A stretch of 64,000 bases of DNA from a virus: positions 43,579 through 107,578 of IMG/VR virus record IMGVR_UViG_3300020045_002218; one strand, given 5' to 3'. The notes under the pieces are model-generated. The model saw nothing but the letters and a program-made list of their open reading frames with translations. It did not search any database and was not told the DNA's origin. Shown here piece after piece: positions 2,335 through 60,052 of the stretch. Position 1 is the stretch's first letter; each line of letters starts with the position of its first letter. Position numbers and translations under genes: made by a program.

Positions 2335-2343
2335 ATAACTCCT

Positions 2344-6476: not shown

Positions 6477-6605
6477 TTTATTTATTCCATAAAAAAAGAC
6501 GTACTTCAAACAGGGTGGAATTAGCAGAATATTGAGCTACCCATTTGAATACGTCTTTGTTTAAATACTCTTTTATGTGATTCCACTCACATGCTTATTG
6601 TATCA

Positions 6606-31935: not shown

Positions 31936-34900
31936 ATGTCATCCTTAGCTGTAGCAATAAATTTAATAAATAATCCAAGAGATTTCTTTAAAGATGCTAT
32001 TTTAAGAGGTCAATCTGGTTATGGAATAAATAATGCACTATTATTTTCTACCGTAACCAGATTTACTAATAAATTAAATAAAGTATATTCATTAATTAAA
32101 AATAAAAATAATGAAACAGTAAATCAATTTCCTTATGGTATGTGTAATGCTTATATTTCTGATTCTTATATTGATTTTGCTGAATTAGAGAAAGATTGTC
32201 GTAAATTTATTAAAGATCAAAAGATAGAAGTATTAGATTACCTTAAACAATTAGATAAGTTTTTATCTAAAGCTTATGCTGATAGAAATGGTGAAGCATT
32301 ACAAACTGAATTAAATAATATTAATGCTATGCCTGATGATCCTGAACCAAGTGAAGGTAATCCTAATCCTTCACATCCTAAAGCTGATGCTTTAAAAGTG
32401 TTCTATGATAAATTAGAGAATGAAGATAATTCTTATATGATTAAAGAATTAGAATCTTTAGAAGATGCTTATTTTTTAGAATTAGAAATAGCTAAACTAC
32501 AAGTTGATTTGGAAATATTATCTGATCCTAAAAATCAAAAAGAATTACAAAATAAACAAAAAAAGTATGACAAAATTAAAGATGATAATCCAGATAATAG
32601 TATACTTAAAACTTTATATTTAGATCAATTAAAATTAATTACTGAAAACGAAAAAAAATATTCAGATACAATTTATAAATTATCTAGTATAGATGAACAA
32701 AAATTTACTATAGTTAAAGATGCAGAATATCTATCTGAACAAGATTATCAAAAAAAAATAAATGCTATAAATCAACAAAAAATAATACATGAATCATTTA
32801 TATTAGAAAATAAAAAAGAATATAAAAAATTATATGATTTACTTATGATTTATCGTGTAGCTAATACTGGCATTTTATCATTAAAAATGTTTGATACTGA
32901 AGGACATCCAATAATATTAGAAGGAATAGAACAAGGAATAATTTCTAAAAATAAAGAAGATATTAAAAAACAAGAAGAATTTATTAATGAACCTTATCTT
33001 GAAATATCGTATGTATCTCTTAATACACATACTGAAAACATTATCCATAATATAAAACAAAGAAAATATGGTAATTCTATGTTTTGGGCTATTCGTATGC
33101 ACAAAATATTTGCTAATAAAGATTGCTTATATGCAGGTTTTAGTAGAAATATAAAGAATATTAATATATCTAAAGTGTTTTTAGCTAAACATAGGGATAT
33201 ATATGAAATAGATCCTAATGTATTTTTTGAAGAAGTATATGTTTCAGATGATCCTAAAATATCAGTCTTATGTCATATAAAAAAAAATACTAATCCAACT
33301 CAATATGGCATATTTATGCTAACAAAAGATGATAGTCCATATTTAAAAATCCTATCAGAAAAAAAAGAAAAAATACTAAAAGATAAAAATACAAATAAAC
33401 CTTTAGAATTTTATCCAATGATTCCTATTAGAGAATTAAATAAAAATTTAATTGAAAAAGAATCTAAACTCAAAAATTCTTGTGAAGAATTATTAAGAAA
33501 TTTATATATAAATATTAATGCTATATCATCTGCAATAGATAAAATAGGAAAACAAAAAATATCTATAATTTGTCATGGAACATTTATAATGAATTACCTT
33601 AAAGAAAGATACAAGGTATATAGTAATATGCTCCTAAGATCTTATTTTAGTAAAAATGATTCAACACAAATTTTCTTAGATTACTTTGAAAATCTTCCAG
33701 ATAAAAATAATAGAATCAATACAAAAAATACAGATGTAGATTCTATTTTAAAGGATATTTATTTAGCTTTTGGAATATCTATAGATAATTTTGATTTAGC
33801 CAGTACAAAATATCTTTACACTTTTTTTGAAACAGTAGCATTGCAATGTAACATAGATAAAGAAAAATTTTTAAAATATGTAGATGATCAAGAAAAAAAT
33901 AACATACATAAAAATGCAAATTGTTATTTTTTACAAAATTTCTTATCAATTAGAAATACACATTTTAAAACTGATCTATGTTTTAATTATATTGAAAAAG
34001 AGACATTTTCTGGTGTATTAGATAAATTTAATACGACATATATAATAATGAATCCGCCTGCTAATACATATAACAAGTTTTATGATATTTGGGATACTGC
34101 ATCACAAGAATTTCATGGTAAAAATTCAGATCATTTTACTGCACATTTTAAGATAGATTATTCTAATAATATACTAAAAATTTATCTTCAAATAGATTCA
34201 CAAACATATTCAGTAATATCTGTTCACGGGTTATACATAGTATATAGTAGAAGATATACTAAACCTTTAGAATATATAAAAGAAACTGATAGAGCTACAG
34301 GATATTATTCTAAAGATATAAAAAATAGATCATATAGAGCTAAAAGTGATAGAATATTTTATCATTTAGGGTACTATTCTTTTAAAAAAGATACACAAAT
34401 AGCTCAAGTAAATGGTATTGTACCTAAAGAAAATAAAGATTTGAGTAATTTTATTATTCCTTTATGGCATCATGATATTACTGAACCTAGTTATGTACAA
34501 AAAGATACTTTATATTCTGTTAATGATGTAAACAATACACTTCAAAAATCTATAAATTTACTTATATTTGGTGATTTACAACCAAATCAAATAGCAAATG
34601 TACCTGAAAAAACAGATTACTTTGTTCCAGAAGAGCATCAAGTCGAAGTTATTCAATCTTGTTTAGATTCATTTGTAAGTAAATTTAATAAATTTGAAAC
34701 ATATAATAACTTTATGTCAAACTCTTCAAATATAGATAAACAAAGTTATAATGATCTATTTTTTAATATAGGAATTAATCCTAATGTATCAGCGTATTGT
34801 AATGTACCTCCTACAGCAAATAATGCAACATATATGGTAGGTCAAAGTAAAGTATCTTTTAATATATCATCACAATTAATGAATAATAAATATACCTTTT

Positions 34901-34971
34901 ATTTTGAAACTCTAAGCCAAGAGAATAGAATATTTGGAAATATAAAAAACAATAAATTTAATTTTAATTAA
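31936..34971 (+). CDS. Large virion protein at the N4 gp53 position
   Basis: 1011 aa, FYPMIPIR and IYLAFGI motifs, between gp54-like and ejection genes; very AT-rich. Confidence 0.6.
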   Translation: MSSLAVAINLINNPRDFFKDAILRGQSGYGINNALLFSTVTRFTNKLNKVYSLIKNKNNETVNQFPYGMCNAYISDSYIDFAELEKDCRKFIKDQKIEVLDYLKQLDKFLSKAYADRNGEALQTELNNINAMPDDPEPSEGNPNPSHPKADALKVFYDKLENEDNSYMIKELESLEDAYFLELEIAKLQVDLEILSDPKNQKELQNKQKKYDKIKDDNPDNSILKTLYLDQLKLITENEKKYSDTIYKLSSIDEQKFTIVKDAEYLSEQDYQKKINAINQQKIIHESFILENKKEYKKLYDLLMIYRVANTGILSLKMFDTEGHPIILEGIEQGIISKNKEDIKKQEEFINEPYLEISYVSLNTHTENIIHNIKQRKYGNSMFWAIRMHKIFANKDCLYAGFSRNIKNINISKVFLAKHRDIYEIDPNVFFEEVYVSDDPKISVLCHIKKNTNPTQYGIFMLTKDDSPYLKILSEKKEKILKDKNTNKPLEFYPMIPIRELNKNLIEKESKLKNSCEELLRNLYININAISSAIDKIGKQKISIICHGTFIMNYLKERYKVYSNMLLRSYFSKNDSTQIFLDYFENLPDKNNRINTKNTDVDSILKDIYLAFGISIDNFDLASTKYLYTFFETVALQCNIDKEKFLKYVDDQEKNNIHKNANCYFLQNFLSIRNTHFKTDLCFNYIEKETFSGVLDKFNTTYIIMNPPANTYNKFYDIWDTASQEFHGKNSDHFTAHFKIDYSNNILKIYLQIDSQTYSVISVHGLYIVYSRRYTKPLEYIKETDRATGYYSKDIKNRSYRAKSDRIFYHLGYYSFKKDTQIAQVNGIVPKENKDLSNFIIPLWHHDITEPSYVQKDTLYSVNDVNNTLQKSINLLIFGDLQPNQIANVPEKTDYFVPEEHQVEVIQSCLDSFVSKFNKFETYNNFMSNSSNIDKQSYNDLFFNIGINPNVSAYCNVPPTANNATYMVGQSKVSFNISSQLMNNKYTFYFETLSQENRIFGNIKNNKFNFN

Positions 34972-34980
34972 GGAAAAGAA

Positions 34981-35592
34981 ATGGATACTAATTACTCATG
35001 GTTTACACAGCCATCAACACGAAACAGAGGTTCTTCTAAACCTAATCCAGATGAAATATCTCTAATAGATTCTTTAAGTAGTTGGTTTCTAAATCCAGCA
35101 CAGAATAATAGAGGTATGTCTACACAAGAAGCTAATCAACAATATAATCCTCCATCAATTCAAAATGGTAAACTTGTAGCAGGAACTCCTATGGAAGGAT
35201 CTATTCCTCAATTACAACCTCAAATAGCTAATGCTTTTGATGGTGTAGCACAAATGAATTTAGATCATCAACAACTACAAAATACTAATGATCCTTTTTC
35301 TTCTCAAGCTTTAAAACAATTATCTCAACAAGAAATTACTCAAAGGTTATTTCCTAATTCACAAACACAACAACTTAAAACAAATATCTTAGGTGAACAA
35401 ATACCTATGAATCAATTACCTAAAGGTTCGGGTTATGTTAATGGTAAATTATTTGATTCTAACAAACAATCTCCTCAAGGAATGTTTACTGGATATAGTA
35501 AAGAAAGAGATGCTTCTTTAGATAGTTATGGTAAAGTAGATAAAAATTCTGATTTCTATAAAAGAAATAAAAAAGCTATGGAGAATCTGTAA
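34981..35592 (+). CDS. Putative ejection/internal virion protein
   Basis: Cys-free, Gln/Asn-rich, two genes upstream of vRNAP. Confidence 0.55.
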   Translation: MDTNYSWFTQPSTRNRGSSKPNPDEISLIDSLSSWFLNPAQNNRGMSTQEANQQYNPPSIQNGKLVAGTPMEGSIPQLQPQIANAFDGVAQMNLDHQQLQNTNDPFSSQALKQLSQQEITQRLFPNSQTQQLKTNILGEQIPMNQLPKGSGYVNGKLFDSNKQSPQGMFTGYSKERDASLDSYGKVDKNSDFYKRNKKAMENL

Positions 35593-36518
35593 TGAGAAGA
35601 AATAATGTAATTATGCAACCTTCAGCAATGCCTTTTACTACTCAACAACCTGAATATGTACAAGACTTAAGTCAAATATTTGCAGAACAAAATGCTAGAA
35701 ATCAACAAGCAAATGCTGTTAATAATAAAATAGATCAACAACAAAGAAGAGGTTCTGACTTAACTCAGTTAGATGAATTGATTGCTATTCAAGATAGGTA
35801 TAAAGCAAGAAAGAATGCTGAAATGCAAACACCTATGTATAAAGAAGATCAAGCTAAAGAATTAGCACAAGCTCTTCTAGGCACGAAACAGGTTGAGTCT
35901 ATGAGTTATGGTGGTAATCCCATTAAACAGTCTCCTGATGGAAAATATTGGCTTGAGAACGGACAGGAAGTAACTGACGTAGCAAACATTCAAACTAATA
36001 ATAAATATGATCCTATTACAGGATCATTAGAAGCTTTAAAATCTGGTAATCCTTTAGCTCTTCAAGCATTACAAGAACAAATGAAACCTAAAGCAGGTAT
36101 GGATTTAGCAGATAGAATGTTATTAGCACAACAACAAGCTAACTATAAAAAAGATATTGCGGATGCTAAACCAAAGAAAGATACTGATCTTAAGCCCAAA
36201 CAAATAGGGGATATGCTTACTAATCTTTTAGGTAAAAATCCTACAGATGAAGATAGAAGTATTTTAACTACACAACTCCAAAATGCAGATTCACCAGAAG
36301 CAAGAGATGCAATACTATCTGCTGCACAACAGTCAATAATAGAGCCATCATGGGGTAACAGTTTTAGAGGTGCATTAGCTGGAGCAGGTGTAGGTGGAGC
36401 AGCTACATTAGGAAATCCTTTAGGATTTTTAGGAGGAGGATTAATTGGAGCTACATTACCCTTAATGTCTAAAAGACACTTAAATCAAGATAAATTTACA
36501 CAAGCAATGAAGGAATAA
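35592..36518 (+). CDS. Putative ejection/internal virion protein (N4 gp51 position)
   Basis: Cys-free, Gln/Ala-rich, C-terminal glycine-zipper GALAGAGVGG...GGLIGA. Confidence 0.6.
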   Translation: MRRNNVIMQPSAMPFTTQQPEYVQDLSQIFAEQNARNQQANAVNNKIDQQQRRGSDLTQLDELIAIQDRYKARKNAEMQTPMYKEDQAKELAQALLGTKQVESMSYGGNPIKQSPDGKYWLENGQEVTDVANIQTNNKYDPITGSLEALKSGNPLALQALQEQMKPKAGMDLADRMLLAQQQANYKKDIADAKPKKDTDLKPKQIGDMLTNLLGKNPTDEDRSILTTQLQNADSPEARDAILSAAQQSIIEPSWGNSFRGALAGAGVGGAATLGNPLGFLGGGLIGATLPLMSKRHLNQDKFTQAMKE

Positions 36519-36519
36519 T

Positions 36520-39500
36520 ATGTCTTCTACATTTAGGGGTTCAACTTTTGATAGTTCTTCTTTTGATAACAATACTGACTTGGTACATCAAAAGAAAACA
36601 AGTCTATTAGATAAAGTATTTCAAAAGAGAACTGATTTAGGATTCAGTTCAGCTAATTTAAAGGATAGATCTGTAGAAGCATTGGATGCTGATACAGTTA
36701 GAATTAATCCTAGTGTAGCAGATAAAGCTTTTGATCCTATGGTTAAACCAGTAGATGTAAGACTTAAAAGTAATAACTTTGGTGAATCATTTAATGCTTT
36801 TGAGACTTCTCATGATAATGAAGATGATCCTGAAGTAGCTGCTAGATTACAAAAACAAAGAGATACTATTGATAATGAATGGACTCATGGTTGGTTTAAT
36901 CCAGCTACAAACCAAGATGTATATGATAGAGGTAATGCTAGTAAACAAGTATTAACAGATAAGCTTAAAACAGTCAATGAAGGTAAAACTGGATTAGACT
37001 TTGCTTTAGGTGAAAAAATTCAATTAGACAAATTTGGTAGACCATTAGGTGATATGAAATTCTCTAATGAGGATGTATCTGCTATTGATGCTATGAATAC
37101 TCCTGAGTTAAATGCTTCCTATAACACACCATATAACTTTGCTAAAGTAAACAAAGATGGTGGTGGATTAATAGATACAGCTAAAGACTTTGCAGGTACT
37201 CTTTTAACTAAAACACCTACCGTATTAGGTAACATAGCTGTTGGTACTCATGGTTTAGCTTCTGCAATGGTTAATGCACCTACACAGGCACTAGGAAATA
37301 TTGTAGGTGGTGATACTGGAGACAGCATTAAAAAGTTTGGTGATATAGCTAGTACCTATGAGTTACAAAATATTCTTCAAAATAGAACTCATTATGCTAA
37401 ACCTTTAGTAGATGCTTTACCTATATCGGATGAGGCAAAAGACACCTTAAACAATCTTAAATATGAACCAAATAGATTAGATGCTACTACTGATAAGCTA
37501 TATCAATCTGATGCTTTAGCTAAGTCAAGACAGGATTCTGAATACAGATCAAACCAAACACAAAGATTAAGGGATGAATTAGGGTATAAACCAAAAGGTG
37601 TATATGAGAGTGCTATGGCACTCTCTTCTGATGTAGTGGATTCATTACAGGCATTTGTAGAGAATCCTAGAGCAACACTTACACATGATTTACCTGCTAA
37701 CATAGCTCAATTAGCTGTACCTATTGGAGTTACAGGAAGAATTGTAGATAACATAGCTATGAAAATTGCATCTAAAACTTCTGGAGGAGTTGTTGATGGT
37801 GTAATTACCCAAGTAGGTAAAGATGCAGCAACTAAATATATTAGTTCTGCTCCTGTACAAAAACAGTTATTAGCTATAGGTGGTTTAACTGAAGGTACTC
37901 AAGCAGCATCTTCTATTGTAAATCAGGCAGAAGAAGCTAATGTATCTCCTAGTCAGTATTTAGCACCAGCTATTGTAGGAGGTGTTGTTACAGGTCTTAT
38001 TGGTACTGGTTCAAATAAATTACTTGGTGCTACAGCAGCAGATGCTCTAGTTGGTGTAAACAGAGTTAAAGGATCTGCATTTACTAAAGCTCTTAAAGCG
38101 TTTACATCAGAAGGGATAGTAGAAGAATTTCCACAATCGGTAAATGAACAGTTAGCTACAAATATTGCATTAGGAAAAGAAAATGTAATAGAAGGTGTAG
38201 GTCAAGCAGGTGGTTCAGGAGCTATTGTTGGTGGTCTATTAGGTGGAGGTATGCACACACCTATATTGTTACAGGATGTTCTACAAGCTCGAAAAACACC
38301 TTCAGTTGAACCAACATCCGTCTCAGAAGAGAAACCTTCTACAATCGAAGATTTGACACCTTCTAAGGTAGATATTAAAGCTTATGAAGATTCAGTTAAT
38401 AACATTACAGATGACAACAGACAAGAAGTTATAAACCAAGGTATTAAAGATTATCCTGTTGACGGTACTTTACCTGAAAAGATTCAAATGGCTGTAGCCA
38501 TTGGTAAAGCTAGAGATGGGTTTAATTCACCAGAGCATGATGCAATATATAGACAAATTAATGCAGAAATTCAATTACAGAATTTTGCTAAAGGAATGCC
38601 TAACTTCAATGATGTAATTTCTGATCCAAATACTTCAATTGAAGATATTCAAGATAATCTTATTACAGGTGCAGTAGATTCTACATCAGAGAATACTGGC
38701 TCATTATTTAATGATATTGGTAGAACTAAAGATGAGGATACATTAAATATTCTTAAAGATATTTCTATAGCTAAACAAAAAGAGTATGCTGAAAGTGATA
38801 CAGTAAATGATCCTTATGTATTAGTTACTACAGGTATTGAAACTAAAAACTTACCTAAAGAATCTTCTGAAGTATTCTCATCTATTACAAGGAATGAATA
38901 TACAGACTTAAATCAAGGATTAACTTTATTATCTAGTCATGTTAAATCAGCTACAACACCAGAACAAAAGAATACTGGTATATCAGCATTAACTAAAACT
39001 ATCTCTAAAGTATATTCAGATAAAGTAGATATTACTTCTGCTACAGAAAGATCAGTTAAACAAGCATTAAATACTATTAATGGTTTAGTTAATAACAAAG
39101 GTACTATTACTATTGAACCAAGTGATACATTAGAACAGATTCACAATAAGATATTACCTACATTTGGTTCAACTCCTATTAAAGGTAGTTCTAGTAATCC
39201 TAAAGCAAATGCTTTTATAAAAGCTACTAATAAAGTATTACAAGGCGCACAAACATTATCTAAATTCTTAACACAAAAATATGTAAATGATAAAACCACA
39301 GGTGAAGTACATCAAGAAATAATTGATGGTAAAGGTGAGAAATTAAGTGTACTAGACCATGCTACTATTATTTCTGGAAAGATTGCAGATACAAATTCTG
39401 ATGAAGAATCAGTAAATAGGGCATTTAATAGATTTACTAACTGGGTAGACTTTCATACACAAAAAGCAGAATTATCTACTGCACTAGGAGCTATTCCAGA

Positions 39501-42500
39501 ATCTAATAAGAAAGCTCAACAAATAATTGAAACAGCATTAGAAACTTTACAAGGACAAGATACTTTTAAAGAATTTAAGAGTAATCCAATTATATGGACT
39601 AAAGGATTATCTAGTTTAGCTGAGACAATGAATGCTGAAGTATTTTTCATGCAGAATACTCTTGATACTTTACAAGAATTAAAAGATGCTAGGTTTGGTT
39701 CTAAAAATACTGCTACACAAGTAACCTCTACTGCTGAAAGTATCTCTCAGACTGATGAGAATGCCCTAGATTTAACGAATGTAAATCAGGAAGATACTAT
39801 TGAAGAAATCAATATGGATGATATTCCTGAGAAATCAGTAACCTCTAAAGAATCTTCATTTAATGAAGAACAAGAAAAAATTTATCAAGATTATGAAGCT
39901 GAACAAGATTCACAACAACAAGCTCAAAATGAGCCTACAAGCAACGAAATAAGTAAATCTGAAGAAGTTATTACCTCAGAAAAGAAAGCTTCTGTAACAG
40001 TATCTACAGAGCTTACAGAGGTATCTTTGGATAATGAACAGACTCAAGATTTACTTGAAGTACCTTTACCACCTGAAGATACTAAAAATTATTCAGAGTT
40101 AATTAATAGAACGTATTTCCCCTTTAGTACAGAAGAACAACTTAAAAGTATTAGAATATTTTTCTTTGCTAATGCTCTAAAAAATAAGATACCTGAAGCA
40201 AAAGCTAGATTTTTGTACTTACAAGAGTTAGCTACAAATAATAAAGATACTATTAATGAGACATTTGATTTACCTATCTGGCGTTTTGATATTATAAGAC
40301 CATATTCTTTAACTCATAAATGGAAAGATGGTAAGTTAGTATCTAAAACTAGAGCAGTAATTACTTCCTTAATAGATAACACAAAGCAATTCTTTAGTGA
40401 TTTATTTAATATTAAAAATGATAATTTATTTAACAGAATTCCTAATTTATTGGAACATATCCAACAAAATAAATTAGTAAATAATGATAGCTTAGATGCA
40501 ATAGTTAAGTTTCATACTGATTTTGTTAAAACATTTGAAGCTAATATTAACCCTGAATTACTTAAAGAAAGTTTATCTGATAATGCTGCATCATCATTAT
40601 TTGTATATGATCCTAAAAAAGGTAAAACATACCTAGAACCAAATACTTTATTTGCTATGAGTCTTGGTTCAATACAGTTTTTACAAACAGCACTATCTAC
40701 GGTTTATAATGATGATGATGCTATTAGAAGTATTGTTGGTTTAAAAGAAGGTGACAACTTACCCGCTTATGTAAGAGATTTATTAAGTGATAAAGGTTCT
40801 GTAGCTAACATAATGAAGAATCAATTAGGAGCTTCTTTATCTAAGTTGTTAGGTGTAACATATAAACCAGATACTACATTACCTCAAATCGAAGGATTTG
40901 AAGCTTCATTAGGTGCTTATGCTTTAAGAACTCTTATTGATATAAAATTACTCGAAGAAACTCAAATTGAGAAATCTACTATTAATGCTATGAAGAATCA
41001 ACTTGAAGAAGGAACTCTTCCAGGAAACCAAAAGACACAAGATATAGTAAATAAACTTTACATTGGTGCAACAACCTTTGTAAGAGTAGCTGCACAAAAG
41101 AATATTGAAACAGGAAGACCTGAAGTAAAATCTGAAATTAAAGAACTACTTGAAGCTATTAAACCAGCAAGTAAAGAATTAGATGATTTACTTAATACAA
41201 CATTTTCAGAAGCATTACCTTCAGGTAGTAAAACTTCCTTGAAGGCTTTAAAAAAATGGTTAGGTAAAACTTGGCAAGGTTCTAATGCTGAATATACAGA
41301 AGCAGAATACAAAGCAATAAAGAAGTATAACGATACTGCATATACAGCAGAAACTAAAGCTATGAATGCTGCTTTAATATTAGATGAAGAATTTATTAAA
41401 CAAGTAGCTTTAGGTGAACAGTATACTGATGTAGTTCAAAAACATTTTGAAAAGACTAGAGCAGGTAAAGAATTACAAGCAGAGAATGAGTACAAGTATT
41501 TGATGGATTCCTTTGATGTATTTAAAGAACATGGTTCACTTTACTTCTTATCTAAGTTTTGGAAACAAGGAAGAGTAGGTATGGAGAAAGGACCGCAAAA
41601 CAGTAAAATGATGAGATGGTTATTTGCTCCTAAAGGTGTTGAATATGAAGTTAACTTATCTAACAAAGAATCCTCTAAATTCTTTAAATTAGCTGTTGTA
41701 GCAGCATTTGGTACAAAGATAGATCAAATATTAGATACAGCCTTAGATAAAGAATTTGATGCCTTACTGGTCAAATATAAAGATGTCCTAGAAGACTACT
41801 CTAAAACTAAAGGATATACAGAAAATGTAACACAAGAAATGAAAGATACTCTTCTTGATGCTATATATGCTGGTAAAGAAGGATTTCATAGTTATGCTGG
41901 ATTACTTGAATTAGCCCATTACAATGAGAATAAAGATAAAGGTAAATTTACTTCTCAGTTAATGAGAGAAGATGATGGTATTACTAATGGTCCAGCAATA
42001 GGATGGTTACTCTTTAATGGTGGAGATAATAAAAGAGTATTAGATGGATTTGCTATCTTTACAGATAGTCATGAAGATACATTTACTACTCACATGGCTA
42101 AAGAAGGTAGTGCAGATAATTACAATCTTATGGGTCAAAAAGCTAAAGAGAACCAAGTAATTGTTAATAATAAATTAGAAGAGTTAAACACTTACTTAAC
42201 AGAGAATCCAACTGTAAGATCTTCTATATTTAGAATTAAATATTATGATAAAAAGAACGGAACAGACTCTTTTAATGCTTGGTTCTATAAACAAGGTTTA
42301 GGGGATATGTTTGCTACAAATTCTTATGAGTTTGGTTTATTACTTAATGTTATTGAAGAATCTAAAACTCTTATAGATACCAACGAAGGTAAGAAGAAAG
42401 CTAATTATAAAGAGAATTTACAACCTACTCTAAATGCAATTCATTCTATGGTAGGGGAGTTAAATAGATCATTTGCTAAGATGCCTTTAATGACGCTTAT

Positions 42501-45500
42501 CTTTGGTTCGGGTATTAATAAGATTGCTAGTAATATTGGATATATTGCTATTGATTCTATGTATGAAAAGATTCAAAAGGTTATTAGAAGTAAACCAAAG
42601 AACCAAGAAGAAATAGATGCACAGAGAATATTACTTAAAGAAATAGAAGATAATATTATTGAGCTTACAGGATATGATATTCCTTTACCTTTAAACGAAG
42701 ATAAAGAAGAAGATGCTTCTCTTTATTCTAATTCTGTTGCAGAAGATTACGATTCAACATTAGCTGCATATTCTATTGAAGCTCTTAAGAATTTTAAATT
42801 ACCTATTTATGTAGAAAAGAAATTAGCTAAACAAATAGCTAATGTTTATGTACCTATTATTAGAGCTTCTGTTAATGCTAACTTTCAAACATTTATTGAT
42901 AACAGAAAAGCTATAAACCAAATATATGATATAGGTAATACTGTACTTAAAACACATATAGAACATGAAGTATCTCTTGTTCTTAAAGATGGTTTAACTA
43001 AACAGAAGTTATTAGATATTTTTGAGAAAGCAGTTAAGCTAATGCCTTCAATGAAAGTACCTAATTTTGATGGTACTGAGAGAGAAATATTCTATTGGAA
43101 TAAAGATGAATCTAGTTCTACTATGCCTGAATTTAAGGTACAAGTAAAACGTAAAAAGAATAAAGAAATACTGTCTTTTTCTTATTTAGATGATAACGGT
43201 GAGGTACATACAAGTAAACCAGTAATACTTAACAGTTCAACTGATACAGGTCATGCAGTAGGTATATTACTTGAAGCTATAGGTGTAAGAACACCTATTA
43301 TGACTATTCACTATACAGATTCTTTACCTGTTAAAGAAATAATGAACAGTAACTTAATATCTACTATGGTTCATGATGCTAGAATTGGTGCAGCAAATAC
43401 TTCTGATGAAGGAAGTTATTTGATGAATAAGAAGTTGCTTGAAAGCATTAATTTACTTAATCCATTTAAACAAGCAACAGATTATTTACAACAAGTATTT
43501 GATAACTTACCTAAAGGAGATTCTAAACTATCTAGTAAATTAAAAGATGCTTTAGAGAAACCTTTAAAAGAAGCATTTAAGAATAAACAAACTGTTCCTC
43601 ATGTACAACAAGGTAAAAGAAAGGTAAGTCCTTTAGTCTATAACAAAGAAAATTCAGGTAAACAATTTAAAGATTATTTAGGCTATTTAAATGAATGGGT
43701 GAAATACCAAACAGGTGTAAAAAATGAGATAGCTAAGTCTATTAAAGCATTTGGTAACTATGGTGGTAATGCTACATTTAAACCTCAAATGGTTGAAGCT
43801 GTTAAACAAGACAATTTCAGAGAATTAGTAGCAGAAGAGTTTAAAGATGTACTAAAGAATATCTCTTTAGGTAAAGGAAATAAACCGTTAAACGATATAA
43901 CAGATAAGCTTATAAATCTATATACACAAGTAAATGTTGTAGAAACACTGCAAGAGTTTATTAATAGAATAGATACTCTTGGTTTAACTATTGAGCAATT
44001 CAAACAACATCAAACCAATATTGAGAATAAAATATTAGGTACTTCTAAACAAGAAACTAAAACTAAACCAAATAAATCTAATAAAGAAGAAGTAACTAAT
44101 TCAACAACTCAAACTAATGGGGATAAATTAGTAATATTACCTATAGGTACTTCTGGTTCAGGTAAATCTACTTGGATTAAAAGTCTTAAAGGTGAGTATG
44201 TAATTATTTCTCCTGACGAAATGAGAGTTGAATTCACAGGAAGTATGGATGATAAGTCTCAAGATAAAGAAATTTATGAAGCTGTAAAACAAAGAACTAT
44301 TAAAGCTATAAATCAAGGCAAACAGGTAATTATTGATAGTACAAATCTTCAAAGAGATAGAAGAAGAGACTTTACTAATGCTATTTTACAAGCTATTCCT
44401 GATGCTAACGTTGTTTATAAATTACTTCCCTTAAATCCAGAATTAGCTAAACAAAGAATTAAAGCTCAAATAGATAAAGGTGAAAATAGAGCAAATGTTC
44501 CAGATAGTTCAATTGATAGACATGCGGAATTATATAAGGAAATGCTTAATGATATTAAAGATGAGCCTATAAAAGAATTCAAAGAACAAACCAATGAAGA
44601 TATTCCTTTTATTTTAACTAAAGATAAAGTACAAAAATTAAAAGAATTTCTAACTAAATACATAAACCAATCGTCTACATATTCTATAAAAGAGGTTCTT
44701 ACTTTAGTAAATACTAAAGCTCCAGACTTTAAAGATATGGATATTGTAAAGTATATGTATGGACAGTTACTGTCTACATATTATTCTGATACAAAACAAA
44801 AAGAAGATTTTGAAAAAGGTAATAATACTCCAGATCAATTTTATGCACATAAAAATTATTGGAATACTAGAAAAGAATATGGACTTAGATTAGTTAAAGA
44901 CAATCAGTCTGGTAAAGTAAAATTACAGAATATTAATAAACAACTTAATGAAAATAATAAACCTCTTGGTTCAACACCTGATGCTAAAGATTTACTTACC
45001 GATATAGAAGATTTAAAGAAAGATATTACTACTGAGAATATAGTATCTGAATTTGATGCTATGCCTAAAGGTGATGATGAAACACATAACACATTCTTAA
45101 GAAATTTTGTGTCTCAAGTAATAGCTCCAGTAGTAGAAGCAACTGAATTACTTCTGTTTAGTAAAGCTACATATACCTATGGACAGTATTCTGCTGAGTT
45201 AAAGAAAGTAGCTATTAACTTAGGTCAAGCATTACAAGAACAATACTCTCCATTTAAGATGTCTGCTCAAGAAGTATTTGCCCATGAATTCTCTCATGCT
45301 GTTACTTGGACTGCATATCAAATGCCTAAGAATGGTACCCTTAAAAGAAAGATTGATAGTTTATTTTATAATGTAAGAAGAGAGTTTAATAAAGCTAAAT
45401 TAATAGATACATCTTTAGCTAATTGGGATTATGTATTTAATAATGCTGATACTATAAAAGTAGATAATGCTCCTAATTCTTTAGGAGAAGTAACAACTAC

Positions 45501-48438
45501 TTCATACGACAGAGGTATTCAAGAGTTTATTGCTTTTGGTACTACTAACAAGGAATTTAGAAATCTAATTAAAAGACTTCAACCTAAACAATTAAAAGTA
45601 AATCAAGTATATGAAGGTACTGGTTCAGATGTAATTAAAGAAGCTTCTTGGTTAGAAACAATAACTAATATTTTTAAAAAAATATTAGATTCATTTATGA
45701 GAATAGCTAAAGGTAATGATTACCTTGAACCATTAACTCAGTTTGATACTAATGTAAGGCTTATATTAGCTGCTAATATAGATAAACCTTTTATTAATAT
45801 TACTGCTATTACAGATAAAGTAGAAGCTGAAGTAGCTAAAAAGACTAATGAAGGTTTTAAAAAAGGACTTAGAATCATTGCTAAAGGTAGAAATTCTAAA
45901 GTTCAAGCTATTAGAAGTGCCGCTAAATTAGCTGATGCTGTACCTGCTATTGGAGGATTTCAAACTAATCAAGTAGTAAGACAAACTCTTAAATTAATTA
46001 CTAATCCAACAGCTAGACAATTTGCTTTAGACTTAGTTAAAGATATTGCTGATGTAAATGAAAATAGTAAACCAATAACTAATACAACTATTCAGCAGAA
46101 GACAGCAGATGCTGATAGAAATAAAGCTACAGATTCTGATGAGAATAACTGGAGTAAACGAGTTACATTAAACCATGAACAAGATATAGCTTATAATAGT
46201 GTTCTTGTTAGAGGAGATTATGAGAGTCTTAATGATGCTTACGGTAATGATGCTATTAAGCTATTAAAGGATAAATCTTTTAGAGATAAAGAGATTAAAC
46301 TTATTGAAGATCAAATATATAACTTAAAAAGTAAAGCTCTTAACTTAGCTAATCTAATGGTTCATGGTAAGAATATGTTTAATGGTATGACAGAACATAA
46401 TGCTGTACTTATTGCTAAACAAGGTAGAAGTATCTCTCAAGATAAGTATCAAAAAGAAATAGATTTAGTAACTAAACTAAGCAGACTTTATGCTATTGGT
46501 TTACAGGATGAAAACCAAGTAAACCAAATAATATCTTTATTAGAAAGTAATTTTGATGGTATGAAACAAATGCTTAAAGTTCATAAAGAACTTAAGAAAC
46601 AGCAGTTATCTGAAATAGATGCTCTTACTGTTATTGATGGTAAAACTCATACGACATTAGATCCAAACAAAACAATATTTTTAGGTACTAAAGAAGATGA
46701 AAAACATTTAGTATCTGATTGGAAAGCTAAAGTAATAGGTAGATTAGAAAGAGATCCTAATGATCCATTATCTACTGAAGGTATTTTGTATTTAGTAGAT
46801 GTTAAAATGCAAAATGATTGGGATGCTAAAGCTATGGCTACTACTGATATTACACCTGGCTCAAGTAATTTTCAGTCTGGTATAGTTAAAACCGATAGAT
46901 TTAAAGCAGAAGAAAATAGAGAGAAAGCTAAACTTAAAGAAGATGGTACTAACACTAAAAATCATATATTTACAAGAAATAATTCTAATGTATCACGAGT
47001 AGCTATTCATAATGCTCAAGGTAAAATTATTAGATATGAATATATTCTTGATAGAGAAACACAAGAAAAATATCTTAATCCAAGAATAAATGTATTAAGG
47101 GACTTAGCTGCACAAAAGAATGGTACTGCATATAGAGCTAAAGCTTATGAGTTAAATCATAAGTTAGTGGATGCTCTTTTTGATTACTGGAAGAAATTAG
47201 GACATGATGCTAGAAAGGATATGATTTGGGTTGGTTCAGATAGTAAGTATAGTGATTTATATAACACTATTCCTACGGAAACTAAAGAATATATTACTAA
47301 AATATTTGGTACTAAAAATGGATTTTATATGGCAGAAGAAGAACTGCGAGAAGTATTTGGATACAGAAAACAATCTATAACTAATTGGATTCAACCTGTA
47401 CAAGCTGATAATTTGAAAAAAACTATAGGAAACATGATCTATGAGCAAGCTAAAAGATTTGGTTTAAACCAAGCTAATATTAAAGCTATAGAAACTATGT
47501 GGATTGAAGGTATAGCAATAGCTAAAGATACTATTGTTGTTAAATCTGGTGTTGTATCAGCAGCTAATGAATCAAGTAACTTTATGACTGCTAAGTTAGC
47601 TGGTGTTCCTATTGGATTCTATTATAAAAATAAAATATCTGCTATGAAAGCAGAACAGGAATACAGAAGAAATTCTCATGCTTACTTATCTCATTTAAGT
47701 AATGCTTATGGTAATCCAGAATATATTACTAAAGAGATAGCTCAAGAAATGAGTATTCTTGAATCTGCATTATCAACTAATGAAATGAGTTATTTACATG
47801 ATGAAGGATTAGCTTCAACAGTAGCTGAAGAAGGTTCTTATAAAGATAAACATCAAACCATGTTATTTAATAAAACTGAGAGAGCTAGAAACATATTTGA
47901 TAAATTACCTAAAGTAGTTAAAGATACTCTTAAAATAGCATCAATATCTGAAGGTACTAAGATATATAAACTATTAGATGAGATAGCTCAAATGGGTGAT
48001 ATTACATCACGTCATGTATTAGTTAAATGGGAAGAAGAGAAAGCTAGACAACAAGGTAAAGAGTTTGATAAGAATAAAGCTATAGACTTATCTAAATTCT
48101 TATTTATCCAATATCACACAGTTACTAATGACTTGGTTCAATATGGTAATGATATTGGTTTGTTAATGTTTACTAAATTTGCTGTTAAGACACTCAAAGT
48201 CTTAACTTATATGGTAGGACAACACCCTGCTAGATTATTAGCACTAGGTATCTTTGAAGAGTTATTTGCTACTACAGAGTGGATATGGCATACAAGTATG
48301 AATAAGTTAGCTAATCCAATTACATCTGCTTTAGCTACTATTGATGCAAATCCAATAGTAAACTTATTAGTAACTCCTCCTGCTTATATGCCACAAGAAG
48401 TATTAGGGGCATTAAGTACACTTCCATTAGTACCATAG
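36520..48438 (+). CDS. Virion-encapsidated RNA polymerase (N4 gp50-like), multidomain
   Basis: 3972 aa, no Cys seen; motif A EDDGITNG (~41970), motif B RSFAKMPLMTLIFG (~42466), motif C VHDA (~43370), zincin HEFSH (~45283) with EFIAFG, AKD.IVVKS, Y.ND.GL.MFTKF. Confidence 0.95.
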   Translation: MSSTFRGSTFDSSSFDNNTDLVHQKKTSLLDKVFQKRTDLGFSSANLKDRSVEALDADTVRINPSVADKAFDPMVKPVDVRLKSNNFGESFNAFETSHDNEDDPEVAARLQKQRDTIDNEWTHGWFNPATNQDVYDRGNASKQVLTDKLKTVNEGKTGLDFALGEKIQLDKFGRPLGDMKFSNEDVSAIDAMNTPELNASYNTPYNFAKVNKDGGGLIDTAKDFAGTLLTKTPTVLGNIAVGTHGLASAMVNAPTQALGNIVGGDTGDSIKKFGDIASTYELQNILQNRTHYAKPLVDALPISDEAKDTLNNLKYEPNRLDATTDKLYQSDALAKSRQDSEYRSNQTQRLRDELGYKPKGVYESAMALSSDVVDSLQAFVENPRATLTHDLPANIAQLAVPIGVTGRIVDNIAMKIASKTSGGVVDGVITQVGKDAATKYISSAPVQKQLLAIGGLTEGTQAASSIVNQAEEANVSPSQYLAPAIVGGVVTGLIGTGSNKLLGATAADALVGVNRVKGSAFTKALKAFTSEGIVEEFPQSVNEQLATNIALGKENVIEGVGQAGGSGAIVGGLLGGGMHTPILLQDVLQARKTPSVEPTSVSEEKPSTIEDLTPSKVDIKAYEDSVNNITDDNRQEVINQGIKDYPVDGTLPEKIQMAVAIGKARDGFNSPEHDAIYRQINAEIQLQNFAKGMPNFNDVISDPNTSIEDIQDNLITGAVDSTSENTGSLFNDIGRTKDEDTLNILKDISIAKQKEYAESDTVNDPYVLVTTGIETKNLPKESSEVFSSITRNEYTDLNQGLTLLSSHVKSATTPEQKNTGISALTKTISKVYSDKVDITSATERSVKQALNTINGLVNNKGTITIEPSDTLEQIHNKILPTFGSTPIKGSSSNPKANAFIKATNKVLQGAQTLSKFLTQKYVNDKTTGEVHQEIIDGKGEKLSVLDHATIISGKIADTNSDEESVNRAFNRFTNWVDFHTQKAELSTALGAIPESNKKAQQIIETALETLQGQDTFKEFKSNPIIWTKGLSSLAETMNAEVFFMQNTLDTLQELKDARFGSKNTATQVTSTAESISQTDENALDLTNVNQEDTIEEINMDDIPEKSVTSKESSFNEEQEKIYQDYEAEQDSQQQAQNEPTSNEISKSEEVITSEKKASVTVSTELTEVSLDNEQTQDLLEVPLPPEDTKNYSELINRTYFPFSTEEQLKSIRIFFFANALKNKIPEAKARFLYLQELATNNKDTINETFDLPIWRFDIIRPYSLTHKWKDGKLVSKTRAVITSLIDNTKQFFSDLFNIKNDNLFNRIPNLLEHIQQNKLVNNDSLDAIVKFHTDFVKTFEANINPELLKESLSDNAASSLFVYDPKKGKTYLEPNTLFAMSLGSIQFLQTALSTVYNDDDAIRSIVGLKEGDNLPAYVRDLLSDKGSVANIMKNQLGASLSKLLGVTYKPDTTLPQIEGFEASLGAYALRTLIDIKLLEETQIEKSTINAMKNQLEEGTLPGNQKTQDIVNKLYIGATTFVRVAAQKNIETGRPEVKSEIKELLEAIKPASKELDDLLNTTFSEALPSGSKTSLKALKKWLGKTWQGSNAEYTEAEYKAIKKYNDTAYTAETKAMNAALILDEEFIKQVALGEQYTDVVQKHFEKTRAGKELQAENEYKYLMDSFDVFKEHGSLYFLSKFWKQGRVGMEKGPQNSKMMRWLFAPKGVEYEVNLSNKESSKFFKLAVVAAFGTKIDQILDTALDKEFDALLVKYKDVLEDYSKTKGYTENVTQEMKDTLLDAIYAGKEGFHSYAGLLELAHYNENKDKGKFTSQLMREDDGITNGPAIGWLLFNGGDNKRVLDGFAIFTDSHEDTFTTHMAKEGSADNYNLMGQKAKENQVIVNNKLEELNTYLTENPTVRSSIFRIKYYDKKNGTDSFNAWFYKQGLGDMFATNSYEFGLLLNVIEESKTLIDTNEGKKKANYKENLQPTLNAIHSMVGELNRSFAKMPLMTLIFGSGINKIASNIGYIAIDSMYEKIQKVIRSKPKNQEEIDAQRILLKEIEDNIIELTGYDIPLPLNEDKEEDASLYSNSVAEDYDSTLAAYSIEALKNFKLPIYVEKKLAKQIANVYVPIIRASVNANFQTFIDNRKAINQIYDIGNTVLKTHIEHEVSLVLKDGLTKQKLLDIFEKAVKLMPSMKVPNFDGTEREIFYWNKDESSSTMPEFKVQVKRKKNKEILSFSYLDDNGEVHTSKPVILNSSTDTGHAVGILLEAIGVRTPIMTIHYTDSLPVKEIMNSNLISTMVHDARIGAANTSDEGSYLMNKKLLESINLLNPFKQATDYLQQVFDNLPKGDSKLSSKLKDALEKPLKEAFKNKQTVPHVQQGKRKVSPLVYNKENSGKQFKDYLGYLNEWVKYQTGVKNEIAKSIKAFGNYGGNATFKPQMVEAVKQDNFRELVAEEFKDVLKNISLGKGNKPLNDITDKLINLYTQVNVVETLQEFINRIDTLGLTIEQFKQHQTNIENKILGTSKQETKTKPNKSNKEEVTNSTTQTNGDKLVILPIGTSGSGKSTWIKSLKGEYVIISPDEMRVEFTGSMDDKSQDKEIYEAVKQRTIKAINQGKQVIIDSTNLQRDRRRDFTNAILQAIPDANVVYKLLPLNPELAKQRIKAQIDKGENRANVPDSSIDRHAELYKEMLNDIKDEPIKEFKEQTNEDIPFILTKDKVQKLKEFLTKYINQSSTYSIKEVLTLVNTKAPDFKDMDIVKYMYGQLLSTYYSDTKQKEDFEKGNNTPDQFYAHKNYWNTRKEYGLRLVKDNQSGKVKLQNINKQLNENNKPLGSTPDAKDLLTDIEDLKKDITTENIVSEFDAMPKGDDETHNTFLRNFVSQVIAPVVEATELLLFSKATYTYGQYSAELKKVAINLGQALQEQYSPFKMSAQEVFAHEFSHAVTWTAYQMPKNGTLKRKIDSLFYNVRREFNKAKLIDTSLANWDYVFNNADTIKVDNAPNSLGEVTTTSYDRGIQEFIAFGTTNKEFRNLIKRLQPKQLKVNQVYEGTGSDVIKEASWLETITNIFKKILDSFMRIAKGNDYLEPLTQFDTNVRLILAANIDKPFINITAITDKVEAEVAKKTNEGFKKGLRIIAKGRNSKVQAIRSAAKLADAVPAIGGFQTNQVVRQTLKLITNPTARQFALDLVKDIADVNENSKPITNTTIQQKTADADRNKATDSDENNWSKRVTLNHEQDIAYNSVLVRGDYESLNDAYGNDAIKLLKDKSFRDKEIKLIEDQIYNLKSKALNLANLMVHGKNMFNGMTEHNAVLIAKQGRSISQDKYQKEIDLVTKLSRLYAIGLQDENQVNQIISLLESNFDGMKQMLKVHKELKKQQLSEIDALTVIDGKTHTTLDPNKTIFLGTKEDEKHLVSDWKAKVIGRLERDPNDPLSTEGILYLVDVKMQNDWDAKAMATTDITPGSSNFQSGIVKTDRFKAEENREKAKLKEDGTNTKNHIFTRNNSNVSRVAIHNAQGKIIRYEYILDRETQEKYLNPRINVLRDLAAQKNGTAYRAKAYELNHKLVDALFDYWKKLGHDARKDMIWVGSDSKYSDLYNTIPTETKEYITKIFGTKNGFYMAEEELREVFGYRKQSITNWIQPVQADNLKKTIGNMIYEQAKRFGLNQANIKAIETMWIEGIAIAKDTIVVKSGVVSAANESSNFMTAKLAGVPIGFYYKNKISAMKAEQEYRRNSHAYLSHLSNAYGNPEYITKEIAQEMSILESALSTNEMSYLHDEGLASTVAEEGSYKDKHQTMLFNKTERARNIFDKLPKVVKDTLKIASISEGTKIYKLLDEIAQMGDITSRHVLVKWEEEKARQQGKEFDKNKAIDLSKFLFIQYHTVTNDLVQYGNDIGLLMFTKFAVKTLKVLTYMVGQHPARLLALGIFEELFATTEWIWHTSMNKLANPITSALATIDANPIVNLLVTPPAYMPQEVLGALSTLPLVP

Positions 48439-53383: not shown

Positions 53384-54013
53384 TTAAGATTTAAATTCTG
53401 TGTAAGCTATATTAATTAAAGCTTTCTTTAATTTTTCATCTTTTTGTTGGTTTGCCACATTGATAATGTGTTGTTGTTTAAATTGAATGTATACCATTTG
53501 AGCTTCAAGTAGAGTGGTAAAATAACCTAAATGAACTCTTTTACTAAATACACTACATTGTGCTTGATATTTGTTACTTCTTTTATTGTAATGAATTCCT
53601 AACGGTAACAAACCTCTAGCTTTCTTTTTATCTAATAAAAGTTTATTTATTTCTTGAGTCACAAAAATACAAGTATCTTTAGAATAGAGTTTATTTCCTC
53701 TAACTAGAATATCTTTATCTAAATCTTTGTTTTCCCAATCTTGAGTCTGCATCCACTCTTTAAAATTACTAAATGTATGCCAAGATTTTTCAGTAATACA
53801 TCCTTTATATGTTGGGTGTCTTGCTTGAAAAGATGTACTATAACATCTCTCTAACATGTGTACCCAAACACGAAAATATGGACAAATATAACGTTTATTT
53901 GAAATATTTATCTCTATTTTATATGGGGAATCATTAATACCAATATTAAATATTGGTTTACGTTTAGCTACACTTCTATTATTAGAAGGAATTTCTTGAA
54001 ACATAATCATCAC
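53384..54013 (-). CDS. HNH/AP2 endonuclease, paralog 2
   Basis: FQEIP...RKP...IGIND, MLERCY, LDKDILVRGNKLYS.DTCIFV, LGYF.T..EA...Y. Confidence 0.85.
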   Translation of the reverse strand: MMIMFQEIPSNNRSVAKRKPIFNIGINDSPYKIEINISNKRYICPYFRVWVHMLERCYSTSFQARHPTYKGCITEKSWHTFSNFKEWMQTQDWENKDLDKDILVRGNKLYSKDTCIFVTQEINKLLLDKKKARGLLPLGIHYNKRSNKYQAQCSVFSKRVHLGYFTTLLEAQMVYIQFKQQHIINVANQQKDEKLKKALINIAYTEFKS

Positions 54014-57004: not shown

Positions 57005-57621
57005 TATTTCTCCAAATGAATAGTATTTGCTCTTTCAATTAGAGCATTTTTTATACGAACATCTTCTTGTAGATTTGCTAATGTTAGTAATAATTCAGCT
57101 TTATGTAAACAGTATGCTTCATGAGCATCACTTTCTAAAGAAAAATAACCTAGATTAACACCACAACAACTTGCACCATATTTCTTGTTGTGTTTGTGCC
57201 AGGATACCCCTAACAAATACTTACCTCTTGTTTTAAGTGAAGTTAGAAGTAATGTATTTATAAATTTAGTTACAAATACACATGTATCTGGAGAATAAAC
57301 TTTATTACCTTTAATAAGAATATCCTTATCTAATTGTCTATTTTTCCAATGTTGTTTTTCCATCCAAGATCGAAAATTGGAGAATGTTAGCCATTCTTCA
57401 CAGACGGTACATCCTATGTATGTAGGAAACTTTTCATGTTTTTTTGGTGAGTAACATCTCTCTAACATACTTTTCCATGTCTGATAGTAAGGACAGGGAA
57501 TTCTTTTACCGTCTACTTTATATTCAATTAAGTATGGTGCATCATTAATTGCTATACCATAAATAGGTCTTCTAATTGATAAGCTATGAGTGTTTACTGG
57601 GATTTCTTGAAATGTATTCAT
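57004..57621 (-). CDS. HNH/AP2 endonuclease, paralog 3
   Basis: Same motif series as paralogs 1, 2 and 4; ends NALIERANTIHL like paralog 1. Confidence 0.85.
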   Translation of the reverse strand: MNTFQEIPVNTHSLSIRRPIYGIAINDAPYLIEYKVDGKRIPCPYYQTWKSMLERCYSPKKHEKFPTYIGCTVCEEWLTFSNFRSWMEKQHWKNRQLDKDILIKGNKVYSPDTCVFVTKFINTLLLTSLKTRGKYLLGVSWHKHNKKYGASCCGVNLGYFSLESDAHEAYCLHKAELLLTLANLQEDVRIKNALIERANTIHLEK

Positions 57622-59431: not shown

Positions 59432-60052
59432 TTAAAAATCCTCATTTGCTGTATGTATTAGTGCATTCTTAAGTCTTAGATCAAGTTGTTCATTTGCTAT
59501 TTCTAAAATATGGTTCTTTTTAAAATATTTGTAAACTTTTTCTGCTTCTTCTTCGGTATTAAAATAACCTAAAGTTTTTCGTACACCTCTTACACTACAC
59601 TGTGCTATAAACTTTTTATCTCTAGTAGACCAACATATTCCCGTGACGTATTTGCCTCTTGATGCAGCGTGGTTACCTAATAAACTATTTACAGCCCTAG
59701 TAACAAAAATACATGTTTCTGGAGAATAAACTTTGTTTCCTTTAAGTAATAAGTCTTTATCTAATTCTTTTCCTTCCCAATCCTGTGATTGCATCCACTC
59801 CTTAAAATTAGAGAACGTAAGCCATTCTTTACATACGGTACACTCTATATACGTTGGTTGATTTCTCTGATACTGAATACAATAACATCTTTTAAGCATA
59901 TTACGCCAAACGCTATAGTATGGGCAAAATATTGTCTTACCATTAACTTTAGGTGATACTTGATAATTTACATCATTAATCCCTATTCCAAGAATTAATT
60001 TACGTTTAGCTATGCTATAAGCATTGGCAGGTAATTCTTCAAAAGTATTCAT
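59432..60052 (-). CDS. HNH/AP2 endonuclease, paralog 4
   Basis: MNTFEELP, MLKRCY, LDKDLLLKGNKVYSPETCIFV, LGYFNTEEEA. Confidence 0.85.
   Translation of the reverse strand: MNTFEELPANAYSIAKRKLILGIGINDVNYQVSPKVNGKTIFCPYYSVWRNMLKRCYCIQYQRNQPTYIECTVCKEWLTFSNFKEWMQSQDWEGKELDKDLLLKGNKVYSPETCIFVTRAVNSLLGNHAASRGKYVTGICWSTRDKKFIAQCSVRGVRKTLGYFNTEEEAEKVYKYFKKNHILEIANEQLDLRLKNALIHTANEDF

Follow-up and report, generated by a model that had tools for sequence, protein, structure and literature searches.

The DNA analysed here, a 64,000-nucleotide stretch of IMG/VR virus record IMGVR_UViG_3300020045_002218 (the window), carries the gene of a giant N4-type virion RNA polymerase (vRNAP; RNAP, RNA polymerase), in which a predicted staphylococcal nuclease (SNase)-like head and a polynucleotide kinase (PNK)-family module are built into a polymerase chain of the coliphage N4 type. 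The PHROG 2206 profile 'virion RNA polymerase' recovers nearly the entire protein (E 6e-209; residues 173-3949 on profile positions 36-3404 of 3406), the solved N4 gp50 structures 11gp and 9pnr are matched by its polymerase core and C-terminal domain (CTD), and a profile of the protein and its clade relatives aligns to N4 gp50 residues 1321-3445 (E 1e-76). The protein thus combines a full-length profile match with polymerase motifs A, B and C, an HExxH-containing C1 domain followed by a helical C2 domain, and an N4-like virion module nearby. The gene order of the window is likewise N4-like, with genes for RNAPII subunits, primase, exonuclease, Sak4, SSB, portal, major capsid protein and terminase, and its GC content is ~30%. 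We estimate a probability of roughly 60% that the protein is the RNA polymerase which an uncultured, AT-rich N4-like podophage packages in its virion and injects into the host, and that it bears two independent accessory modules.

The protein shares with N4 gp50 (PDB 9PNR, 9PNQ, 11GP, 2PO4) the order N-terminal domain (NTD), linker, T7-like RNAP, C1 with HExxH, and C2, as well as motifs A, B and C and matching neighbouring virion, replication and RNAPII genes. It differs from N4 gp50 in length (3972 versus 3500 aa), in sequence (at most ~25% identity in alignable parts), and in having an extra SNase-fold head, Phe for Tyr in motif B, and a 396-aa slot instead of a 23-aa linker between RNAP and CTD. 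In a clade hidden Markov model (HMM) comparison, the Gly/Ala-rich NTD segment is weakly homologous to residues 320-569 of the N4 gp50 NTD (E 1e-6) and is probably membrane-associating; in N4, membrane-spanning helices are predicted for the NTD, and the domain inserts into nanodiscs (PMC13434306). The acidic linker that follows is analogous to N4 linker 907-1006 (PMC13434306), and the polymerase module maps to N4 residues 1321-2013 by HMM. The protein would accordingly be a standard N4 chassis (NTD, linker, polymerase, C1 and C2) with two independently grafted modules (Table 1).

N4 vRNAP is packaged in few copies, passes through the gp52/gp51 channel on ejection, its domains loosely connected, in a one-chain, beads-on-a-string model of delivery, is anchored to the inner membrane through its NTD, and transcribes the early genes; the recombinant protein is autoinhibited by its CTD (PMC13434306, PMC13492108). 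Since the accessory modules are covalently part of such a beads-on-a-string protein, they would enter the cell with the first DNA, ahead of any phage gene expression. Injected phage proteins act before phage gene expression, which makes them prime candidates for immediate counter-defence. An earlier note on this DNA, made from its letters, had framed the product as a polyvalent injected protein, and SNase-fold, RNAP, kinase and HExxH domains are indeed present in one open reading frame (ORF).

Table 1. The vRNAP gene, its domains and motifs, and the virion genes upstream of it (window positions)
Feature	Residues	Position	Strand	Basis or remark
N4-type vRNAP gene, whole	1-3972	36520..48438	+	one unbroken ORF, 3972 aa
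Predicted SNase-fold domain	~45-210	36652..37149	+	AlphaFold2 model, Foldseek, VIA, 10-member alignment
Gly/Ala-rich, moderately hydrophobic NTD segment	213-600	37156..38319	+	composition, hydropathy
Acidic, Ser/Thr-rich low-complexity linker	~1061-1185	39700..40074	+	composition; NTD-polymerase junction
T7-like single-subunit RNA polymerase module	~1251-2421	40270..43782	+	PDB 2po4/3c2p mini-vRNAP matches
Motif B, RSFAKMPLMTLIFG	R1983-G1996	42466..42507	+	Phe1995 codon TTT 42502-42504
Conserved part of RNAP-CTD slot	2422-2534	43783..44121	+	90% identical to P0005
Inserted cassette, 277 aa	2535-2811	44122..44952	+	clean indel; closest relative P0005 without it
PNK-family P-loop kinase	2538-2690	44131..44589	+	AAA_33, PHROG 505, TIGR04075, Foldseek
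Small helical module and disordered tail	2691-2811	44590..44952	+	AlphaFold2 model m424c4bd64a3b
CTD-C1, putative zincin-like domain	2812-3200	44953..46119	+	HEFSH 2922-2926 (45283-45297), Glu3002
CTD-C2 helical domain	3201-3972	46120..48435	+	aligns to N4 gp50 2744-3446
Three upstream virion genes (1011, 203, 308 aa)		31936..36518	+	positions of N4 gp53/gp52/gp51

The head precedes the membrane-associating segment and is predicted to adopt an SNase fold. An AlphaFold2 model of residues 1-215 (m1c818910b44d), made from nine clade sequences, has a mean predicted local distance difference test (pLDDT) score of 61, rising to 70-86 in the core. When this model is searched against the PDB with Foldseek, the top 50 matches are staphylococcal nuclease throughout (best E 5e-3; template-modelling score, TM(target), ~0.5). 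A VIA all-against-all search ranks SNase 1sta first (Z 7.0, root-mean-square deviation 3.3 over 100 residues, 17% identity), followed at ranks 2-15 by Tudor-SN and extended-Tudor SN-like domains (Z 4.6-6.3); below these SN-like folds come LEF-3 (Z 4.3) and a remainder at 3.2 or less. In addition, a protein-language-model search, used as a lead only, places the head with an SNase cluster (score 0.88).

Specifically, the head contains the motifs DADT (56-59), VRL (80-82), NAFE (92-95) and DKFGRPL (170-176), which we take to be the equivalents of SNase D19/D21/T22, R35, D40/E43/H46 and R87. By motif rather than by structure-based mapping, D58, R81, E95 and R174 are the counterparts of SNase active-site residues. 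The patterns DxDT, [VI]RL, [ND]xxExxH and D-x-x-x-R-x-L are invariant in 10 clade members with 40-80% identity, and this invariance suggests a preserved active site. Residues 1-240 have no Pfam, NCBIfam or PDB sequence or profile match, even at E 10, and the SNase call rests on fold and motifs for that reason. Compared with staphylococcal nuclease itself (PF00565), which is the best fold match and whose D19/D21/T22, R35, E43 and R87 have motif counterparts, the head lacks profile-level similarity, has Asn in place of D40, has ~6 residues inserted between the Arg and the D40 position, and is fused to the membrane-associating segment of a 3972-aa protein. We conclude with moderate confidence that the head has an SNase fold and is possibly active; such a domain would bind or cut nucleic acid close to the entry site.

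The SNase-fold head is confined to a small uncultured clade. A phmmer search of the N-terminus against 1.84 billion representatives retrieves six clade members only and no stand-alone nuclease, and tblastn against 50,697 phage records (cultured phages) gives no match. Together with a 5.8-billion-protein set, these searches bring the head-bearing proteins to ten, including P0220. Furthermore, comparison with the clade profile reveals no counterpart of the head in N4 gp50 residues 1-1320. The clade as a whole is remote from cultured phages: megablast of the whole vRNAP gene against them finds no match, and in tblastn the C-terminal domain reaches 28% identity at best, with C2 matching 457 cultured N4-like phage records.

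The second accessory module lies in a cassette between polymerase and CTD, composed of the kinase, a small helical module and a disordered tail. The closest relative, P0005, is 87% identical in the polymerase and ~87-90% identical in the cassette flanks, with the linker conserved on both sides; the absence of the cassette from P0005 despite such flanks points to a recent insertion of the kinase. The helices of the small module are modelled at pLDDT ~70-77, after which the score drops below 50. The module has no Pfam match, and it occurs at the same slot without the kinase in P0220, where the end of the slot is 64% identical to it.

The kinase belongs to the PNK family by its best named match in every library. 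Pfam AAA_33, which has a cut-off of 27 bits, scores 66.9 bits on residues 2538-2672 and 71.6 bits when the segment is searched by itself; PHROG 505 'polynucleotide kinase' gives E 3e-13; and the kinase part of NCBIfam TIGR04075 (bacterial Pnkp) matches with E 1e-11, a score far under the whole-protein cut-off because only one of the domains of that family is present. In addition, phmmer matches the kinase to the Pnkp kinase domain of Clostridium thermocellum (CthPnkp). The kinase part of the AlphaFold2 model has a pLDDT of 80-94, and its twelve best distinct Foldseek entries are PNK-family kinase domains, led by CthPnkp 4gp6 (E 3.6e-8). The order is CthPnkp, Pnkp1 and mammalian PNKP, then PSTK, with T4 Pnk lower among adenylate, UMP/CMP and thymidylate kinases. 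Two calls of the earlier note, a thermonuclease-like N-terminus and a PNK-like kinase, are thus supported, the former by AlphaFold2 fold matches and motifs, the latter by AAA_33 (66.9 bits), PHROG 505, TIGR04075 and best structural matches to Pnkp; profile searches, which the note had proposed as a check, accept the kinase above the AAA_33 cut-off and return nothing for the nuclease, which is supported by fold and motifs. The Gly-rich hydrophobic region that it described corresponds to residues 213-600, Gly/Ala-rich and moderately hydrophobic.

Residues typical of the family are in place: a Walker A motif GTSGSGKST (2543-2551), D2566-x2-R2569, IIDSTN (2604-2609; D2606, T2608 and N2609) with R2615, and lid residues K2644 and R2646. 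Among 210 homologues, 80-95% or more retain them, and they presumably have the roles of their counterparts in T4 Pnk and CthPnkp. The kinase shares with bacterial Pnkp (PDB 4GP6/4JST) and T4 polynucleotide kinase the fold and the Walker A, DxxR and DxTN...R set, and differs from them in its low identity (~20-24%), in having no attached phosphatase or ligase-like domain, in the absence of an RNA ligase gene nearby, and in being embedded in an injected polymerase. Its substrate is most likely 5'-OH nucleic-acid ends. The kinase would phosphorylate 5'-OH ends of RNA or DNA and may heal ends left by host defence RNases, possibly together with host enzymes; alternatively, it may turn 5'-OH RNA into a substrate for 5'-monophosphate-dependent RNases. 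In T4 infection, Pnk is reported to act after RegB cleavage and to mark 5'-OH RNA for 5'-phosphate-dependent decay.

Homologues of the kinase are found in 91 proteins of 486-2000 aa and 119 proteins of 2184-6951 aa, mostly at 50-78% identity (range 39-78%) over ~150 residues. They occur beside ART-PolyVal, NADAR, DUF7831, PD-(D/E)XK, RecD/Pif1-like helicase, LysM, NUDIX, HD, AlkB-like dioxygenase and poly(A)/CCA-type nucleotidyltransferase domains, and in sequence terms the kinase is a promiscuous mobile module. At least five homologues have an N4-type C2 domain (P0108, P0204, P0206, P0210 and P0212), with the kinase in the N-terminal third. In cultured phages, tblastn of the kinase yields 41 records; the matches listed are stand-alone genes from large phages of Bacillus, Vibrio and Streptomyces and from jumbo phages, with none of those listed inside a vRNAP. 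The NADAR, AlkB-like, CCA-type transferase and HD co-domains fit, circumstantially, a theme of nucleic-acid damage reversal. The giants P0192, P0191/P0202 and P0108/P0190/P0217 carry, beside the kinase, a poly(A)/CCA-type nucleotidyltransferase with HD, AlkB-like dioxygenase or NADAR domains, a company suggestive of nucleic-acid repair or de-modification that may point to what the kinase does.

The RNAP-CTD linker that received the cassette is a hypervariable cargo slot in this clade. Measured from motif B +439 to HExxH -105 (the N4 domain borders), it spans 42, 117, 146, 252, 338, 396, 449 and 484 aa in eight clade members, the window protein being the one with 396 aa, and 13-110 aa in six other IMG/VR vRNAPs; the N4 linker is a disordered stretch of 23 residues (PMC13434306). 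Slot content within the clade is mosaic and shared only in part. In P0004, the cargo is a DUF7831 domain (residues 2598-2714, E 1.5e-28). Pfam finds no significant domain in the slots of P0220, P0002 and P0007, apart from a faint methyltransferase-like match in P0220. Further cargo of 250-480 aa, with no Pfam match beyond that faint one, fills the slots of P0006 (2134-2617), P0220 (2726-3174; L004:4813-6156) and P0002 (L005:4723-5733). A flexible linker between two beads would be a permissive spot for an added bead, and any enzyme in the slot would be delivered ahead of phage gene expression. A broader proposal is speculative and improbable in our estimate: that the linker is a dedicated, recombination-prone slot for swapped, pre-packaged counter-defence enzymes, with the PNK-like kinase as a first-minute countermeasure to RNA-cutting immunity or a trigger of host-RNA decay, acting here jointly with an SNase-like head that makes 5'-OH ends.

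The polymerase itself contains the catalytic residues D1819 (motif A), R1983, K1987, F1995 and G1996 (motif B, Rx3Kx7FG), and H2285 and D2286 (motif C), all invariant in the clade. Phe1995 occupies the position of the N4 Tyr, as the earlier note had seen when it described a T7-type core with a Tyr-to-Phe change in motif B. As a distinctive trait of this protein the change does not hold up: Phe is invariant in eight clade members and present in 10 of 23 sampled IMG/VR N4-like vRNAPs, the other 13 having Tyr. An effect of the Y678F substitution on the use of deoxynucleoside triphosphates (dNTPs) was reportedly described by Kazmierczak in 2002. A natural Y678F has been on record since the N4-like phage polymerase alignment of Ceyssens et al. 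2010 (PMC3715699). Phe loci include L008, L009, L014, L020, L024 and L026, some from lineages outside this clade, and cultured-type sequences (N4-like, Vibrio phage contigs) retain Tyr.

C1 is a putative zincin-like metallopeptidase domain. All 23 vRNAPs compared (the window protein, N4 and 21 IMG/VR loci) have its HExxH motif and a Glu ~76 residues downstream (here H2922, E2923, H2926 and E3002) without exception, and the surroundings, MSxQEVFxHExxH, are common to them; Pfam matches to the motif are sub-threshold only (SprT-like E 0.033, Peptidase_M4 E 0.13). N4-like RNAPs are 'almost always fused' to a zincin metallopeptidase (MPTase) (PMC5512222), and the zincin fusion of vRNAPs has been published (PMC5512222, PMC13434306). 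The earlier note located the HEFSH motif correctly and proposed that the zincin may release the other domains. Mass spectrometry and immunoblots show recombinant N4 vRNAP at full length (PMC13492108, PMC13434306), and injection of N4 vRNAP without processing has been reported (PMC5512222), so that zincin-driven domain release finds no support; given its invariance, the C1 motif is also no special addition.

Several points weigh against reading the protein as an injected polymerase with two accessory modules. Its packaging and ejection are carried over by analogy from N4. The SNase call depends on a medium-confidence model and motifs only, and the position of the Ca ligand D40 is Asn92 here, being Asn in seven close clade members and Asp in three distant ones. 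Neither the vRNAP nor the window ORFs of at least 150 aa include a 3'-phosphatase or RNA ligase partner, so a heal-and-seal pathway would be incomplete and the kinase alone cannot complete a T4-style tRNA repair. The isolated kinase segment also passes the cut-off of Pfam Zeta_toxin (PF06414; 24.3 bits versus 22.3, E 2.4e-5), a family of the same clan as AAA_33, which makes a small-molecule substrate possible. Finally, the kinase-bearing giants P0103 and P0105 have no PHROG match beyond the kinase.

With these points in mind, the head could be a non-catalytic OB-fold domain that binds nucleic acid or protein like the SN-like domains of Tudor-SN and cuts nothing; it could then grip the leading genome end or dock on the ejection channel. 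We regard this as a real possibility, short of probable. SNase requires millimolar Ca2+, a demand that the cytoplasm does not meet, and N4 vRNAP is itself necessary to bring in the first phage DNA. Both facts favour a head without nuclease activity, as do the Asn at the D40-equivalent position in all seven close members, the missing SNase profile match and the numerous non-catalytic SN-like domains among the VIA neighbours. On the other hand, all ten members have the DxDT, Arg, Glu-x2-His and GR motifs unchanged, which suggests a preserved active site, and Asp is retained at the D40 position in the distant ones.

For the kinase, action on a small molecule, such as a cell-wall precursor as in zeta toxins, a nucleotide or a defence signalling nucleotide, would aid entry or blunt an immune signal. 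Besides the Zeta_toxin match, a Pfam match to KTI12 (E 4e-5), the nucleotide chemistry to which the NADAR, ART, NUDIX and HD co-domains of homologues point, the lack of a ligase or phosphatase partner and the presence of zeta-toxin-like kinases in polyvalent and MuF-fused proteins (PMC5512222) speak for such a role. We nevertheless consider it unlikely and rank the zeta-toxin reading below PNK, since AAA_33 scores much higher (71.6 versus 24.3 bits), the top named match in each library is a polynucleotide kinase, the PNK-typical DxxR motif is conserved, and PNK-family domains take the first twelve places among distinct structural matches, with PSTK and adenylate, UMP/CMP and thymidylate kinases behind them. 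No zeta toxin is among the top structural matches shown.

The earlier note had joined the domains into one toolkit, in which the SNase-like domain cuts and leaves 5'-OH ends, the kinase phosphorylates these, the products serve the polymerase and the domains are set free by the zincin. The individual elements would suit it: the enzymology is established, as SNase leaves 5'-OH ends, which PNK-type kinases accept; T4 RegB and Pnk offer a nuclease-kinase precedent; a nuclease-like and a kinase domain lie in one injected chain; and the HExxH site and its downstream Glu are intact. However, the two modules are distributed independently: the head is found in nine relatives that lack the kinase, and the kinase in ~210 proteins that lack the head, which gives a co-occurrence in 1 of 10 head proteins and 1 of 211 kinase proteins. 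Moreover, the kinase came with a cassette that the closest relative lacks, ~2300 residues and a membrane-associating segment separate it from the head, the seven close clade members have Asn at the D40 position, N4 vRNAP stays full-length in recombinant form (PMC13492108, PMC13434306) and is injected unprocessed (PMC5512222), and the zincin, universal in vRNAPs, has no link to either module. A coupled toolkit is thus very doubtful, and we infer that head and kinase are separate cargoes of the injected polymerase without a coupled pathway. A chimeric join in the metagenomic contig, which the length of the source contig (107,578 nt versus 70-77 kb for relatives) and the finding of this exact architecture in one sequence only might suggest, can practically be set aside as the origin of the cassette, because the insertion is in frame and exactly inside the linker with both flanks intact, the C-terminal module of the cassette sits at the same slot in P0220, and the same kinase is present in other N4-type proteins.

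The polymerase with its two cargoes is in line with the multi-tool proteins that phages are known to inject; it is no new kind of machine. Iyer, Burroughs, Anand, de Souza and Aravind (2017) defined polyvalent proteins with N4 gp50 as a worked example and named ART, lysozyme and PBECR RNase as other domains that partner N4-like RNAPs (PMC5512222). Like these proteins, the window vRNAP is a giant virion-delivered chain in which an N4-like RNAP, a zincin MPTase and shuffled effector domains are combined, and its kinase homologues carry the class-typical ART-PolyVal, NADAR and helicase domains. The kinases of that study are of Ser/Thr type and zeta-toxin-like only, the latter being the sole P-loop kinase, and PNK-type kinase, thermonuclease and SNase are not mentioned (PMC5512222). 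A full-text literature search combining vRNAP or N4-like with thermonuclease, staphylococcal nuclease, polynucleotide kinase or AAA_33 retrieved no paper describing such domains. The polyvalent principle, the zincin fusion and the natural Tyr-to-Phe change are therefore published, and an SNase-like head, a PNK module in vRNAPs and the use of the RNAP-CTD linker as a cargo slot are absent from the literature searched. The suggestion of the earlier note that the combination might be undescribed accordingly stands for the two accessory domain types and falls for the polyvalent principle; of the refuting case that the note had named, an architecture already common and annotated, one half applies, as an architecture of this kind recurs in metagenomes but is unannotated there and was found in no paper. 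Since polyvalent injected proteins have been known since 2017, the surprise is limited.

An N4-type polymerase evidently tolerates large insertions at the RNAP-CTD linker, and the differing cargo of relatives at this slot charts in nature where a beads-on-a-string protein, which must thread a channel of ~30-35 Å, accepts additions. Identification of the kinase substrate would explain a widespread module common to more than 200 giant phage proteins. The SNase-fold head adds a second candidate activity, described in no paper searched.

The surroundings of the gene conform to the N4 type. Upstream lie the terminase, portal (phrog_1216) and major capsid protein (phrog_1357) genes, and three virion genes adjoin the vRNAP gene; of their products, only the 1011-aa one has a PHROG match (phrog_2220), and a role of all three as ejection proteins would follow, by analogy, from their position. 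The flanks contain two N4-type RNAPII subunits, primase (phrog_2135), exonuclease, Sak4, SSB, RusA, ribonucleotide reductase and thymidylate synthase. ARAGORN finds no tRNA gene in window positions 1-64000, and the excess length of the source contig (107,578 nt, against 70-77 kb for relatives) is not explained by the window alone. N4-type RNAPII is encoded by two separate genes, 4837-5841 (-) and 6609-7529 (-), as in N4, and an HNH gene splits the pair here. It is one of four paralogous HNH endonuclease genes (5850-6509, 53387-54013, 57007-57621 and 59435-60052, all on the minus strand) that are scattered in the replication module, all match phrog_953 (E 1e-79 to 1e-87) and look like homing endonucleases.

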